Below, piece after piece: positions 12,269-16,972 of a stretch of 28,249 bases of DNA. Position 1 is the stretch's first letter. Each line of letters opens with the position of its first letter. Location of the stretch: positions 1 to 28,249 of the IMG/VR virus record IMGVR_UViG_3300023314_000008, one strand, 5' to 3'. The translations under genes and the position numbers were made by a program. The stretch comes from a virus (lineage: Duplodnaviria > Caudoviricetes). The notes under the pieces are model-generated. The model ran no database searches. It saw only the letters and a program-made list of their open reading frames with translations, and was not told where the DNA came from.

Positions 12269-12556
12269 ATGACTAGAGTGGCAGAACAAGAACTACAACA
12301 GAGTATAAAAAAATCAGAGTTCAGAAGCATGATCGCAACGGTGGCGAGTACGGCTACGGTTTTATGCGGAATGTTCTTTGGTGGACTTAAGATAGTAGAG
12401 GCTGTAAAGTATACTGTCAAAGTTGAAGTTATGGCCGAGATCAATGATAGATTGAACCAAGCCGATAAACAGCAGTTAATAAAGGATAATTCTCAGGACG
12501 CAGAAATCAGGGCTTTACAATCTGCTGTTAACGGCATCATGGTTCCAGATAAATAA
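12269..12556 (+). CDS. Membrane-anchored coiled-coil protein (possibly lysis-associated)
   Basis: One hydrophobic segment (MIATVASTATVLCGMFFGGL) followed by a coiled coil. Confidence 0.55.
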   Translation: MTRVAEQELQQSIKKSEFRSMIATVASTATVLCGMFFGGLKIVEAVKYTVKVEVMAEINDRLNQADKQQLIKDNSQDAEIRALQSAVNGIMVPDK

Positions 12557-12584
12557 AAACACTTTTCATAGGTCAAGTTTGGTT

Positions 12585-12615
12585 AGTCCGTTGCATAAAT
12601 GTAGCGGACTTTTTT
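12585..12615 (+). terminator. Rho-independent terminator at the end of the tail operon
   Basis: AGTCCGTTGCAT-AA-ATGTAGCGGACT followed by TTTTT. Confidence 0.8.
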
Positions 12616-12633
12616 GTTTAACGACAATGCTAC

Positions 12634-12665
12634 TTTGATTAATGGTTTATTTTTTGCTATATTTG
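12634..12665 (+). promoter_or_regulatory. Consensus Bacteroidota promoter
   Basis: TTTG (12634-37)-N20-TATATTTG (12658-65). Confidence 0.75.
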
Positions 12666-12667
12666 TG

Positions 12668-12744
12668 ATGCTTAACGGTTCGTCTGAACTCAAATCAGAT
12701 ATTTGAAAATCCTGCTTGTTTATTCGAGCGGGATTTCTTATTTT
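12668..12744 (+). ncRNA. Candidate ~75-nt small RNA
   Basis: Starts after the consensus promoter and ends in a 12-bp hairpin AAATCCTGCTTG/CGAGCGGGATTT plus a weak U tract. Only a 12-codon ORF lies inside. Confidence 0.45.
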
Positions 12745-12757
12745 AGCACTATTAAAA

Positions 12758-13028
12758 TATCAGTTCCACTTACAGAATACTGCATGACCGTTAAGCAAGT
12801 CAAACAAAAATTCGGGAAGTTTTTATTATCGGGTTGTACGAAAACAAATCCATGCAATGATTTTAAGCAATAGGCATCAACATGGTCGGGATATTCTGTA
12901 AAGAATAAAATACAACTTACCTCTAATCTGCAAGGGCAGGCACCGTGGGAATTGATAATTTAGGCTGAGTTAAACAGGCATTAGATACTATCATTAGATA
13001 GCTGTTTTTCAAATGGGACTTATCCCGT
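12758..13028 (+). ncRNA. Candidate multi-stem structured RNA
   Basis: Nested stems 12758-69/12945-57, 12770-79/12892-901 and 12781-86/12851-56; local hairpins 12988-13001 and 13013-28; no long ORF. Confidence 0.4.
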
Positions 13029-13062
13029 ATAAGCATTGCTATGATTAATTAAAACTATTTGC

Positions 13063-13070
13063 TACATTTG
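13063..13070 (+). promoter_or_regulatory. -7 promoter element of the lysis module
   Basis: TACATTTG, 4 nt before ATG 13075. Confidence 0.6.
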
Positions 13071-13074
13071 ATTT

Positions 13075-13245
13075 ATGAACGAACTAAGGGACAGGCTAAT
13101 GGAAAGCAAAAAGGTCAAGGTTGTAGCTTTGGTAGTATTCCTAGCTTGCTTGGCCCTTATCGAAAGAAAAGTAGAGCAATACAAATCGGAAGAACTTCGA
13201 TCGATAACAGTTGACGATTTTGCAAACCATTCAGAAATTAAATAA
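13075..13245 (+). CDS. Small single-TM protein (56 aa), holin/antiholin-like by position
   Basis: MNELRDRLMESKKVKVVALVVFLACLALIERK...; heads the lysis operon. Not in the ORF track. Confidence 0.5.
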   Translation: MNELRDRLMESKKVKVVALVVFLACLALIERKVEQYKSEELRSITVDDFANHSEIK

Positions 13246-13251
13246 TAAATT

Positions 13252-13314
13252 ATGGCAAAGTTTGAAATAGCCGAAGCAATAACAGGTCGTAATGAGGGGA
13301 TATTAGAAAAATAA
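13252..13314 (+). pseudogene. Orphaned 5' remnant of an endolysin gene (20 codons)
   Basis: MAKFEIAEAITGRNEG(ILEK*) aligns with 11/16 identity to the endolysin N-terminus MAKFEVAEKLTSINEG. Confidence 0.8.
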
Positions 13315-13318
13315 TCCT

Positions 13319-13326
13319 TATATTAG
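13319..13326 (+). promoter_or_regulatory. Putative -7 element for the HNH gene
   Basis: TATATTAG (one mismatch to consensus), 4 nt before ATG 13331. Confidence 0.4.
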
Positions 13327-13330
13327 CTTT

Positions 13331-13816
13331 ATGAAAAGAGAAGCAATATCAGGAAATAAAAATCCAAAGTATAAACATGGTGGTAAAGGCACTAGATTAT
13401 ACAATATTTGGAAAGGCATGAGGACAAGGTGTAATTCAAAGCATGCAGATAAATACCCTACTTATGCAGGCTCAGGATTAACAGTAAGCGATGAATGGCA
13501 AAATTCATTTGAAATGTTTAGGGATTGGGCTTTGTCTAACGGATACGGTCATGATTTGTCAATAGACAGAAAAGATACACTTAAAGGTTATTCTAAAGAA
13601 AATTGTAGATGGGCTACCGATTTAGTACAAAACAGAAATGCAAAAACTAATCGTATCTTTATAATTGATGGAGTAAGATTAACAATGTCTGAAGTTTGTG
13701 AAAAGTACAAGATAACTCAATCAAAACTATCGGCTAGAGTGAATAGGTTAAATTGGCCTATTGAAAAAGCAATATTAAATGTAAACTCAAAAAGAGGGAT
13801 TAATCAACATGGCTAA
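13331..13816 (+). CDS. Free-standing HNH homing endonuclease
   Basis: KHG...TRLYNIW.GM..RC......Y..YAG.G..V..EW..SF..F.DW...SIDR.D...GYS.ENCRWAT...Q.RN plus a C-terminal HTH-like tail. The stop overlaps the endolysin start. Confidence 0.85.
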   Translation: MKREAISGNKNPKYKHGGKGTRLYNIWKGMRTRCNSKHADKYPTYAGSGLTVSDEWQNSFEMFRDWALSNGYGHDLSIDRKDTLKGYSKENCRWATDLVQNRNAKTNRIFIIDGVRLTMSEVCEKYKITQSKLSARVNRLNWPIEKAILNVNSKRGINQHG

Positions 13817-14393
13817 ATTCGAGGTCGCTGAAAAATTAACTTCAATTAACGAAGGAGGGTGGGCGCATAACCCATCAGATACAGGCGGAGAAACTTATGC
13901 GGGTATTGCCCGTAACTATTGGCCTAAATGGGATGGATGGAAATATATTGATAAGTATAAATTATCGTATGCTAAATCTGACAAAAAAATGTCTTTGGCA
14001 AAATGGGTTAATTCATCTGCACTTGTATCAAGCGAACCAATTCATTTTATGGTTAGTGCATTCTATAAACAAAACTTTTGGGATGTAAACAAGTTGGATC
14101 TGATTAACGATCAACAATTAGCTAATACAGTTTACGACTTTGGCGTTAACTCTGGCACGGGTAGAAGCGCAAAGTTTTTACAATCATCTGTTAACTCAAC
14201 TTTTGCAACTTCGCTAAATGTAGACGGTCAGGTTGGCAACAAAACAATCGAAGCTGTTAATTCTCATGAAGCATCAATAATTTATAATGAGTTTAATAGA
14301 CGAAGAGAAGATTTTTATCGTTCAATAGCTAAAGGTAATCAAACTCAGTTCTTAAAATCATGGTTGAGCAGGTTAAAGCCCTACAAGAAATAA
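13809..14393 (+). CDS. Endolysin, glycoside hydrolase family 108 with a peptidoglycan-binding C-terminus
   Basis: NEGGWAHNPSDTGGETYAGI, FYK..FWD, YDFGVNSG, VDG.VG.KT, FLKSWLSRL. Confidence 0.92.
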   Translation: MAKFEVAEKLTSINEGGWAHNPSDTGGETYAGIARNYWPKWDGWKYIDKYKLSYAKSDKKMSLAKWVNSSALVSSEPIHFMVSAFYKQNFWDVNKLDLINDQQLANTVYDFGVNSGTGRSAKFLQSSVNSTFATSLNVDGQVGNKTIEAVNSHEASIIYNEFNRRREDFYRSIAKGNQTQFLKSWLSRLKPYKK

Positions 14394-14500
14394 TGCCCGA
14401 CGATTTTTACCTTTCGATCCGTCACCTTTCGAGTTTTAAGAACATATCCGAGTACGAAGTTTATCTAAAAAAAGAAATAGAGAAATGGCAAAAAAAGTAA
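14393..14500 (+). CDS. Possible 35-aa peptide
   Basis: TAATG-coupled to the endolysin and overlapping the next start. Confidence 0.3.
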   Translation: MPDDFYLSIRHLSSFKNISEYEVYLKKEIEKWQKK

Positions 14501-14754
14501 TAGTAAACGACAAAGTTTTACCTGTAGGAGAAACTAAAGTTGTATTTGGTTTAGGCCAATTAACAAATGAAACACCTAAATGGGTGAAGGACACTTTAAA
14601 GTTAACGATTGTAGTTACTTCGGTTCTTGCTATTTGGGTGAGTTCTACAAAACTTATCGGACCAACTGGTAAAGAGGAAATACAAAGCGCATTGGCTGCT
14701 TTAGATTTGCTTGTATTAGGTGTATCGCGTTTCTTTGGTATTGAAGCTAAGTAA
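14485..14754 (+). CDS. Putative holin
   Basis: 89 aa, TPKW followed by two hydrophobic segments, next to the endolysin. Confidence 0.55.
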   Translation: MAKKVIVNDKVLPVGETKVVFGLGQLTNETPKWVKDTLKLTIVVTSVLAIWVSSTKLIGPTGKEEIQSALAALDLLVLGVSRFFGIEAK

Positions 14755-14870
14755 TGATACATAAACCCAACCGGCCCGAAGCAAAGAACCCTCTCGGATG
14801 CCTGATATGGTTCGCCATTGCATTGATCGGATTGGCCGGCGTTATCTGCTACGGAATAGCAAACAGTTAA
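14754..14870 (+). CDS. 38-aa membrane peptide
   Basis: MIHKPNRPEAKNPLGCLIWFAIALIGLAGVICYGIANS; TAATG-coupled, with a clear TM segment. Confidence 0.5.
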   Translation: MIHKPNRPEAKNPLGCLIWFAIALIGLAGVICYGIANS

Positions 14871-14880
14871 ATAAATAATT

Positions 14881-15312
14881 ATGGCAAAGAAAACAGTATT
14901 AGGAAAAGTCTTAGAAGCAGTATTCAACCTGTTCAAATCAAATTGGCCGTCTTTCGTGGCTAAGCTTTATGATAAAGTACCAGATGACGTAAAGGCAAAA
15001 GTATCAATCGGAATTATGATTGTAGAGAATGTTAAAACATGGTTAGGTGGTGATACTGCAAAATTTATAACCCACGTTATACCTGGTGATTTAGACGAAA
15101 AAACAAGACTAGAAGCTATAGAAGTGTTAAAGAAAATATTAGATATAACTGATGATGTTATTGGTCAGGGTCAATTTATAAATTTCAATGGTGCTCCATC
15201 TCATATGATGGCGTCCGATATAAATAAGCATCTTACTGGACTTTCATTTGGTCAGTCAGCGTTAACAACTGAAGTAGTTTATCAGGGATTCAAAGCTGAA
15301 GGTAAACTTTAA
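14881..15312 (+). CDS. Hypothetical phage protein (last gene of the late operon)
   Basis: 143-aa ORF with an AT-rich leader and amphipathic N-terminus. Confidence 0.7.
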   Translation: MAKKTVLGKVLEAVFNLFKSNWPSFVAKLYDKVPDDVKAKVSIGIMIVENVKTWLGGDTAKFITHVIPGDLDEKTRLEAIEVLKKILDITDDVIGQGQFINFNGAPSHMMASDINKHLTGLSFGQSALTTEVVYQGFKAEGKL

Positions 15313-15363
15313 AAATATGCGAACCTAATTTATGCTATCATCGTGTTGAGTGTAAATTCTCTT

Positions 15364-15510
15364 TTAAATTAGCGGTATTATTATTTTTTGCAAGTAATCC
15401 ATTTTTAAAACTGAATGGTTATATTTTTTACGATGATTACTGAAAACCTCGAAAGTTTGTAATGCTAAATAATAATCAGCAGTTTTATTTAATATTTCGA
15501 TTAGATTCAT
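15364..15510 (-). CDS. Possible 48-aa protein
   Basis: Hand-translated ORF directly after the HNH stop. Confidence 0.3.
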   Translation of the reverse strand: MNLIEILNKTADYYLALQTFEVFSNHRKKYNHSVLKMDYLQKIIIPLI

Positions 15511-15519
15511 TTCTATATC

Positions 15520-15930
15520 TTAAATTGTTTCAAAGTAGAATACAACGGGTTTATTTGTTTCTTCAACCAACCCGTATCTTTTTGCGAACTTGTATTGGTT
15601 TGTATATGAATTTAGCGAATTAATAAACGCTCCAATAATCCTTCTAAATTCTTCAATTGAATGTGAACTCTTAAGTATGTTGCAACTTGCGCAAGCTGGG
15701 TTTTGATTATCAATATGTAATCGCTCTGGATGCTCCATTGCTTTTTCAGTTTTGTAGCAATGCTTAACATCGCACCAAATACGATTACCTATTTCGTCCT
15801 TTAGATATTTTTCATATCTCAATACAGGAAGTAACTCATCTACATGCCAACCTTTCATAAGTTCACAACCACAATAAGCACATTTACCGTTATACTTTTG
15901 GAATATTAATTGGCGTTCAGACTTCTTCAT
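15520..15930 (-). CDS. HNH endonuclease-family protein (CxxC...CxxCN), copy 1
   Basis: KYNGKCAYCG...WHVDE..P...NQNPACASCNILK. Confidence 0.85.
   Translation of the reverse strand: MKKSERQLIFQKYNGKCAYCGCELMKGWHVDELLPVLRYEKYLKDEIGNRIWCDVKHCYKTEKAMEHPERLHIDNQNPACASCNILKSSHSIEEFRRIIGAFINSLNSYTNQYKFAKRYGLVEETNKPVVFYFETI
15716..15930 (-). repeat. Inverted repeat arm, matching 28035..28249
   Basis: 208/215 nt identical by manual comparison. The partner is truncated by the window end. Confidence 0.95.
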
Positions 15931-16052
15931 TTCTTAAATCTAGTTGAGTAAAAAGTTCCTGTTAAATATCCATCGAACTTTGTGTTGATGGTTTGTCGAA
16001 TGGCTTTCATAGCCTTATCGATTTGGTTGGATCTGAATTGGGAGTTGGTCAT
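15927..16052 (-). CDS. Hypothetical 41-aa protein
   Basis: ATGA overlaps with neighbours at both ends. Confidence 0.45.
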   Translation of the reverse strand: MTNSQFRSNQIDKAMKAIRQTINTKFDGYLTGTFYSTRFKK

Positions 16053-16267
16053 TGTGCAACTAATCTATCGGTTAAACACTTTATTGAGCAAAAATGAATG
16101 TCAGTATGTTTATCCATTGAATTCAGCATTGCGCTTTCCAATTTATTGGTTATTTTTAATGAATGTCCGTCTACTGAACCGATTCCAATCCATCCAATAG
16201 GTAGATCGTTATTTACGGAGAATGATTTACATCCATGTCCGTCACAATGGTATTCTATTTTCTTCAT
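16049..16267 (-). CDS. Small zinc-finger protein
   Basis: CDGHGC ... GW ... HFCSIKCL. Confidence 0.65.
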   Translation of the reverse strand: MKKIEYHCDGHGCKSFSVNNDLPIGWIGIGSVDGHSLKITNKLESAMLNSMDKHTDIHFCSIKCLTDRLVAQ

Positions 16268-16268
16268 T

Positions 16269-16457
16269 TCAATCTGTTTTTAGGGGTGGGGTTAACTTTT
16301 CAATATCCTCATCATTTATTTTATTAATTGCCTTTACAGACCAAGAAAACCTTTCGTTATCTCTGTAATGAATTGATGTCCTATCGTAATACTCAGCATT
16401 AACTTTATCAAGAGCCTTTTTTCTTCTTAACTGAATTTCTTCAACGGTATTTTCCAT
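16269..16457 (-). CDS. Hypothetical protein
   Basis: Tightly packed in the minus operon. Confidence 0.6.
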   Translation of the reverse strand: MENTVEEIQLRRKKALDKVNAEYYDRTSIHYRDNERFSWSVKAINKINDEDIEKLTPPLKTD

Positions 16458-16972
16458 TATACTATTTTTAATATTGCTATTTTGTTGACTACTTTTTGTT
16501 GGGATTCTTGCCAGTCATCCTTTATCCTCTGCATTATTTTCATGGATGCAGGATAATACATATCATTATTAAATGGTTCAGAACCATGAGGGTTTTCAGT
16601 CAACCATCCTTTAGACCTTATTAGCGACAAAAAACTTTCGATTGGAGTACAAGCAGCAGAAGAAACTCTATGGATTGGATCTAGATAGTTTCTATAATAC
16701 CTGAAATGTTTACCTAAATAAAGTCTAACTATTTTACGGGCGACATCCTCGCTCACCTCATCCAATAGACCGCTGTACATGATTTCGTAGTTGTTGGGAG
16801 GTATATCAACGGTTTCAGAATTAGGTAAACCTCTAAAATTACCATTAATGAATTGTAACATTTGAGAATATGGAATGGTTGATTGGTTAGTTTCCAATGT
16901 TATATATTCCGCTTCATTTGGCAAAGCTAATATCAAATATTCAGCAGAGCCTTGTTTGTGGGTGAAGTACAT
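16457..16972 (-). CDS. Hypothetical phage protein
   Basis: 171 aa, TAATG-coupled on both sides. Confidence 0.7.
   Translation of the reverse strand: MYFTHKQGSAEYLILALPNEAEYITLETNQSTIPYSQMLQFINGNFRGLPNSETVDIPPNNYEIMYSGLLDEVSEDVARKIVRLYLGKHFRYYRNYLDPIHRVSSAACTPIESFLSLIRSKGWLTENPHGSEPFNNDMYYPASMKIMQRIKDDWQESQQKVVNKIAILKIV

Follow-up and report, generated by a model that had tools for sequence, protein, structure and literature searches.

The window, by which we mean the entire stretch of 28,249 nucleotides analyzed here, is a 28-kb phage fragment with a G+C content of 36% that carries tail genes, a lysis region and replication genes. Its DNA is present in three runs, all of them leaf-litter metagenomes. 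The named relatives of its lysin come from genomes of Pedobacter, Mucilaginibacter and Pelobium; therefore, the host is probably a species of Sphingobacteriaceae. Much of the comparison below relies on a 41-kb contig, L001, whose tail genes are 78–84% identical to those of the window at the DNA level. In the lysis region of the window, a gene for an HNH-family protein lies between two versions of the start of a lysin gene, in the following configuration:

13063..13070, + strand: promoter-like box of the TAnnTTTG type, belonging to the host phage and outside the element, with 4 nt between it and the ATG of the 56-aa ORF; activity predicted
13075..13245, + strand: 56-aa ORF of the host phage upstream of the lysin; a 61% identical ORF stands directly 5′ of the L001 lysin
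13252..13299, + strand: stub, i.e., codons 1–16 of the original host lysin, ending with the E-G of the EGGY motif; 43/48 nt as in the L001 lysin start, with the family-consensus peptide
13300..13866, + strand: inserted unit of 567 nt, standing where the empty allele has 10 nt, delimited by comparison with L001 and by a contig of run X3 that joins 13299 to 13867
13319..13326, + strand: predicted promoter-like TATATTAG, which differs from TAnnTTTG at one position and lies 4 nt upstream of the HNH ATG
13331..13816, + strand: free-standing, I-HmuI-like HNH-family gene, 161 aa, PHROG 3377/374, with D79-R80 where I-HmuI has D-H
13809..13866, + strand: replacement lysin head, codons 1–20, with the catalytic Glu15; 35/58 nt as in L001; its start overlaps the HNH stop by 8 nt
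13867..14393, + strand: host lysin body, GH108 and PG_binding_3; 100/107 nt as in L001 just past the head

The intact lysin (13809–14393) is a protein of 194 aa with GH108 and PG_binding_3 domains. A catalytic role is described for the Glu of the EGGY motif in GH108 (PMC12561047); this residue is E15 in 115/115 motif-matched homologues, as the construction of the match entails, and the window reads E-G-G-W here. Based on its domains and the motif Glu, we assign the lysin to the GH108 endolysins. Past 13299, the frame of the stub continues through four unrelated codons to a stop at 13312–13314. The sequence-only reading of this DNA had described an HNH gene placed inside the lysin start, with a stub breaking off at E-G, and then, in order, a promoter-like box, the HNH gene and an intact lysin overlapping the HNH stop; the 16 lysin-like codons of the stub and all the other features are indeed in place. 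Against a profile of family N-termini the stub scores 62 bits, with the stub and the lysin start being the two matching places in the window, and its peptide is identical (16/16) to the first 16 residues in 12 of 115 motif-matched homologues; therefore, the stub is not a chance resemblance. These 115 derive from a set of 120 proteins after setting aside four that lack a motif match and the window's own protein, and 100 of them are nearer to the stub, eight nearer to the new head and seven tied.

Two further observations concern the surroundings of these genes. About 520 nt (12556–13075) separate a small membrane-protein ORF from the lysis genes and have no clear gene; they hold two terminator-like hairpins (12585–12610 and 12707–12736) and many small indels among strain variants in runs X1 and X3, are replaced by other DNA in L001, and gave no Rfam match. 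A second HNH-like gene (15520–15930, − strand; PHROG 2118) is unrelated to the one at 13331–13816 and is absent at that place in the L001 contig.

The empty allele and the extent of the insert

In L001 the 56-aa upstream ORF is followed directly by an uninterrupted GH108 lysin gene, i.e., an empty site, and thereby fits the relative predicted by the earlier reading, in which a start of the 13252 type is joined directly to the lysin body. The first 48 nt of this gene agree with the stub at 43/48 positions. Compared to the working lysin of the window, it agrees at 35/58 of the first nucleotides, and then at 100/107, 192/210 and, in the 3′ part, 134/209. As the match is low in the head and high after nt 58, the window lysin is a hybrid in which a foreign head is joined to a host body, and the inserted unit spans 13300–13866. 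The unit had been proposed to cover 13300–13856: its start stands, and its end must be moved 10 nt downstream, since the foreign head reaches lysin nt 58. The left junction falls within a run of G, and its position may be off by a few bases; the next four letters could be a remnant of codons 17–18 minus two letters. In the same segment (13300–13326) the heptamer ATATTAG is found both at the left junction and in the promoter-like box, with the two copies 20 nt apart. Farther downstream, the lysin body (13867–14393) is 93% and 91% identical to that of L001 in its catalytic part and falls to 64% in the peptidoglycan-binding part, i.e., first above and then below the 78–84% of the tail genes, which points to a second exchange point near codon 125.

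Both alleles are also represented in run X3. One of its contigs joins 13299 to 13867 via ten other letters, giving an empty joint; these are the same ten junction letters as in L001, and it does not count as an independent empty allele. Two short contigs of this run are a 97–98% variant of the filled allele, with six of the eight listed HNH differences synonymous, and one of them extends from the end of the HNH gene over 36 nt of the new head. Because the window is a metagenome contig, and the sole contig spanning the whole stretch may be its own source, an assembly artefact or a local tandem duplication might be suspected; however, stub and head are alike at just 29/48 nt, the bridging variant comes from another run, and two parallel cases exist elsewhere (see below), so that we find this explanation hardly credible.

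The HNH ORF and the new head together fill 536 of the 567 nt, which leaves 31 nt of non-coding sequence, and a search of 12300–16500 yielded no Rfam intron match, with two chance-level matches only. A mobile group I intron was discarded on both counts. More generally, the stub might be the first exon of a splicing element, or the first part of a ribosome-bypass element, with the link to the body made in the RNA or during translation. The position of the junction in a catalytic motif would suit this, as self-splicing introns often insert in catalytic motifs. Nevertheless, the 31 nt beside the ORF and the head and the lack of an intron match in 12300–16500 speak against it, and the complete second start makes splicing needless; we hold such an element to be very improbable. 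The proposal of a splicing-free unit made up of a nuclease gene and a new 5′ end is thus borne out, there being no room for a ribozyme.

An I-HmuI-like protein with an altered active site

The 161-aa ORF matches the HNH endonucleases of PHROG 3377 and 374 (E-values 5e-43 and 5e-38) and has no Pfam HNH match. Its sole sequence match in the PDB is I-HmuI (1u3e; profile E-value 0.0036). In the structure model (pLDDT 85.6), two strands (77–80 and 92–95) and a helix (97–102) follow in HNH order as a beta-beta-alpha core, and the C-terminal domain has two strands and three helices. By its sequence and predicted fold, the protein has an I-HmuI-like HNH (His-Me finger) core with a DNA-binding tail. 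The metal-binding Asp and the Asn of the helix are present and align with the D and N of I-HmuI (D79 in 90/91 and N103 in 91/91 aligned members). However, I-HmuI is intron-encoded and has a general-base His, whereas the family of the window is free-standing and lacks the catalytic His at the end of the first strand, with Arg80 in its place in 91/91 aligned members. D79, R80, N91 and N103 are invariant or nearly so in the family, and H16 (89/91), Y87 (91/91) and several tyrosines are near-invariant; H16 and Y87 are candidate substitutes for the general-base His. A Tyr can replace the catalytic His in PacI, and His-Me groups with neither the His nor a substitute Tyr are taken as inactive in the same source (PMC5714182).

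The protein is likely a homing endonuclease, a view for which the genetic evidence speaks rather than the active site. Related loci with and without the insert at one site were found as three pairs, namely the window and L001, L073 and L400, and L386 and L397. Among cultured phages, 850 records match the HNH protein, all at less than 60%, and distant HNH matches, none of them close, occur in five of 401 genomes of a host-related family.

Spelling and origin of the replacement head

The stub and the new head are alike in 11/16 residues and 29/48 nt. The sequence-only reading had counted 11/16 shared residues and different codons for nine of ten identical non-Met residues, and we reproduced both counts; one of the nine, the change at codon 2, is dictated by the HNH stop codon that overlaps it, as can be read from the sequence. 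In a baseline of 68 distinct homologous genes with 782 comparable pairs, those with 9–11 identical residues in codons 2–16 differ on average in 51% of the codons concerned, and 11/782 pairs reach 88%. From the codon use of the phage itself, the probability of at least 9 of 10 codons being different is about 0.015. The codon distance of the new head from the family is 0.70, compared to at most 0.69 for any of the 68 homologues, and in the closest subset one of 25 is higher. No donor of the head was found, the best DNA match being 38/48 nt. The claim of a “recoded” 5′ end holds as far as the differing codons go; we read it as a head that would have come from a distant lysin by capture, with later selection for difference, a history indistinguishable from descent from an unsampled donor. 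Synonymous change alone may not give immunity. In the case of the T4 endonuclease MobA, nick-site polymorphisms by themselves did not block nicking (10.1101/2022.08.31.505936), so that the non-synonymous changes, or some other factor, may be what confers immunity.

Association of the head with the nuclease

Seven relatives of the HNH protein stand out at 57–98% identity, and in 7/7 of these the C-terminus is H-G or Y-G, as would be required by the 8-nt overlap of the HNH stop with the lysin start. Among the six close relatives on contigs of at least 5 kb, four match a family lysin in the exact nucleotide count of the contig and in source (42569, 26620, 40922 and 5303 nt, the fourth match having been predicted beforehand), compared to 1/41 for distant ones; these four are putative links, made by equal contig size and source. 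We treated as chance a size match of P0122 (1265 nt, different sources) and those of 5/113 distant HNH proteins, and neither P0126 nor P0127 has a matching lysin among the 155 sizes listed.

With the window included, the five linked lysins are scattered over the tree of lysin bodies: their HNH proteins are 76–96% identical and their bodies 57–82%. P0120 and P0246 share 96% of the HNH protein, 23/23 head residues and 82% of the body. The head of P0079 matches those of P0120/P0246 at 21/23 residues, yet agrees at only 15/23 with that of its nearest neighbor by body, a lysin with 93% body identity. At residues 17–18 none of the five linked lysins reads G-Y, compared to 40/146 such departures among the others (Fisher p 0.002, or 0.02 if counted as three head types; the test is post hoc and the kin are not independent), which points to a target around E-G-G-Y. 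Thus, in the linked lysins the head appears to follow the nuclease rather than the lysin body. Against this, the head similarity of the linked lysins (15–19 of 23) overlaps with that of unlinked ones, of which 17/102 are at 16 or lower.

Recurrence in other genes

Among the fetched loci, 93 distinct ORFs of the family had enough flank (92 besides that of the window), and we searched the DNA upstream of each HNH gene for a second copy of the start of the gene that follows it. This uncovered two further cassettes, with scores of 72 and 67 compared to a null maximum of 38 in 150 mismatched pairs:

L073, 2754–3500: cassette in a NinB/DUF1367-like gene, with a 15-codon stub; 7/10 shared residues respelled
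L386, 1151–2219, − strand: cassette in a PHROG 11573 gene of bacterial genome G285, with a 17-codon stub; 10/13 respelled

In the first, an RNA-ligase gene lies upstream and its stop overlaps with the start of the stub; an empty relative, L400, matches both sides at 92% and 97%. In the second, a perfect TATATTTG comes right after the stub, and the empty relative L397 (in G245) agrees at 48/51 in the stub, 36/51 in the new head and 242/269 in the body. The HNH proteins of the three cassettes are 38–41% identical to one another. In all three, the new start overlaps the HNH stop, the frame of the stub ends near the HNH start, and the stub, 15–17 codons long and 84–94% like the empty allele, keeps the native start position. 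The foreign head also runs 10–27 nt past the end of the stub in every case, as expected if it covers the recognition site on both sides of the cut.

The design thus recurs with other target genes. As to the stub–HNH–lysin pattern for which the earlier reading proposed a screen, no lysin stub besides that of the window was found in the 385 fetched loci, a set that counts duplicates and the contig of the window itself and in which 121 loci have a lysin N-terminus. Likewise, no other filled lysin allele was found at the DNA level among the matches listed in the viral, metagenome (37/64 parts) and genome scans. One candidate from the stub screen, L084 (score 48), was not counted, with its match lying 418 nt upstream and away from the gene start. 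There are also family members near lysis genes in other arrangements: L113/L269 (1092–2069) hold distant members near a lysis gene, no stub was seen for these or for the distant HNH genes near a lysin in L094 and L171, and in L347 (2489–2932) a 51% identical HNH gene directly precedes another (lysis) gene, with no stub seen.

The anatomy of the locus, the empty alleles, the foreign heads and the same layout at two other genes are matters of direct observation. We consider it probable that they reflect a splicing-free HNH-family element that sits in the first codons of the lysin and carries a foreign copy of them, the old start being left as a stub. A rather unlikely but related view is that of a conventional free-standing homing endonuclease upstream of a resistant intact lysin (intronless homing), in which the stub would be a one-off, roleless scar that is absent in close relatives. 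It shares its origin with the preferred reading and differs from it only on whether the stub-bearing form itself spreads. The want of another lysin stub in 385 loci, the occurrence of stubs in just 2/92 other family ORFs and the strong differences among the heads of linked lysins (11–16 of 23 in most pairs, though the HNH proteins are 76–86% identical) would favor it. On the other side stand three independent cassettes with stubs of similar length and preservation, each with its native start and ending near the HNH start.

A mosaicism independent of any nuclease deserves mention too: recombination might have imported a block of HNH gene and lysin start, with the protein being dead or merely DNA-binding and the junction due to chance or homology. 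These phages are mosaic, and the replacement of the general-base His by Arg leaves the nuclease activity putative. However, the same layout is seen at three unrelated genes, always with this HNH family and a junction 15–17 codons in; D79, R80, N91 and N103 are invariant, with H16 and the tyrosines near-invariant; and the HNH change is mostly synonymous, with the head codons further from the family than those of any of the 68 homologues. Accordingly, we judge it decidedly unlikely.

Expression of the element

A TATATTAG-type box lies 3–5 nt before the start in 5/11 motif-start pairs in the window and 3/12 in the L001 contig, and in 7/46 such pairs across 27 related loci (p 0.007). TAnnTTTG is the Bacteroidota promoter consensus. 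In the window, TAnnTT[T/A]G boxes stand 3–4 nt before an ATG at 339, 6426 (−), 13063, 13319, 17997 (−) and 22205. This placement, which is enriched in the related loci too, suggests leaderless or nearly leaderless transcripts in this phage group. A sigma-70 scan gave no enrichment (11 compared to 12.9 expected). On the + strand there is no terminator-like site between the box at 13063 and the lysin; therefore, transcription is not taken over by the element, whose contribution is a likely promoter together with a coupled start. The notion that it places the lysin under its own control thus survives for the translation start, which the element supplies, and holds less well for transcription, as the native transcript can read through.

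A proposed mechanism

We propose that the nuclease gene might once have been the immediate upstream neighbor of a distant lysin, with the E-G-G-Y codons of that lysin as its target. On co-infection, the nuclease would nick or cut the lysin gene of the other phage near codon 16. The downstream end would then be repaired by homology inside the lysin, with a crossover at codon 20–21, and the upstream end would be joined with no homology, leaving the stub behind. One-sided, illegitimate repair of breaks is documented for T4 intron homing (PMC2988022). Once formed, the stub could serve as the left homology arm for ordinary two-sided homing into close relatives. A head that differs on both sides of the junction would blunt self-cleavage, and its divergence would also blunt the stub–head recombination by which the element could be deleted. 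Translation would pass from the stub to the HNH gene and on to the lysin by coupling.

More tentatively, it is possible that stub–HNH–new-head cassettes represent a general third route, beside introns and inteins, for phage homing endonucleases into conserved coding sites near gene starts. This widespread HNH family would then be active and site-specific via another general base despite lacking the canonical His, the stub would be kept as both a homology arm and a ribosome relay, and repeated invasions would drive turnover of the endolysin catalytic loop, the 40/146 unlinked lysins with no G-Y being partly relics.

Relationship to known systems

Integrative elements such as SXT at prfC restore the gene that they enter; these are large, driven by an integrase, have att sites and do not home by an endonuclease. 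As in SXT at prfC, the element of the window supplies a new 5′ end to its target gene. The closest parallels we consider come from fungal mitochondria, where mORF gene hybrids are found in atp6, atp9, cox2 and nad3 of Glomus sp. (PMC3630166), which also cites a further one in atp6 of Allomyces macrogynus. These, too, combine an intron-free endonuclease gene in a conserved gene with a foreign, divergent copy of the displaced part, and retain the hybrid gene with the native piece left alongside. However, the fungal mORFs are LAGLIDADG or GIY-YIG elements that replace the 3′ end of an organellar gene, whereas in the window an HNH-type element replaces the 5′ end of a phage gene; the overlap of a new start codon with the nuclease stop is likewise unlike the fungal cases. 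Expression has been demonstrated for the fungal hybrids and is predicted for that of the window. By analogy, then, the element would work like the fungal mORF gene hybrids, mirrored to the 5′ end, but is no member of them. The mitochondrial elements of Tremella fuciformis (PMC7315562) similarly couple a mobile insert to a homologue of part of the host gene, resulting in fragment exchange, and several of them no longer splice; unlike the element of the window, they are predicted introns of about 2 kb with a 5′ fragment resembling the following exon.

Among phage systems, the T4 seg and mob free-standing endonucleases (PMC2988022, PMC10448857) resemble the element in having no intron or intein, in joining an HNH module to a DNA-binding tail, and in standing beside a conserved gene with host expression signals embedded in the element. 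Their own place is intergenic, and they cut at a distance of hundreds to thousands of bases, whereas the element of the window sits at its presumed cut site inside a gene whose start is duplicated. A T4-type intergenic endonuclease with an uninterrupted target was set aside as a description of the locus, as the insertion follows codon 16 of the target gene. The cassette of T4 MobA and the gene 60 bypass (10.1101/2022.08.31.505936) is likewise an unspliced HNH gene in an essential gene that carries a divergent piece of its target; there, however, the gene is split into two working subunits and a ribosome-bypass insert protects, whereas the window has one whole protein made from a new start and no bypass gap. 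A phage endonuclease with a duplicated gene start was not found in open-licence PMC and bioRxiv full text, nor in the available text of PMC2988022, PMC10448857, PMC2248197 and PMC12724721.

As related enzymes do likewise in two other genes, this is likely a recurrent means by which selfish genes settle in conserved phage genes with no need of splicing. The 567-nt element, fully bounded, would be a natural toxin–antidote-like gene drive in a phage, and with both alleles in hand its cleavage, immunity and homing are directly testable. It would show that a free-standing endonuclease can reside at its own cut site in an essential gene with no recourse to splicing, and might be a possible step between intergenic and intron-borne endonucleases. 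The catalytic end of an endolysin thereby becomes mobile, a confounding factor for lysin trees and gene calling. Moreover, should the Asp-Arg family prove to cut DNA, a large set of phage HNH proteins, dead in appearance by the His rule, would be active.
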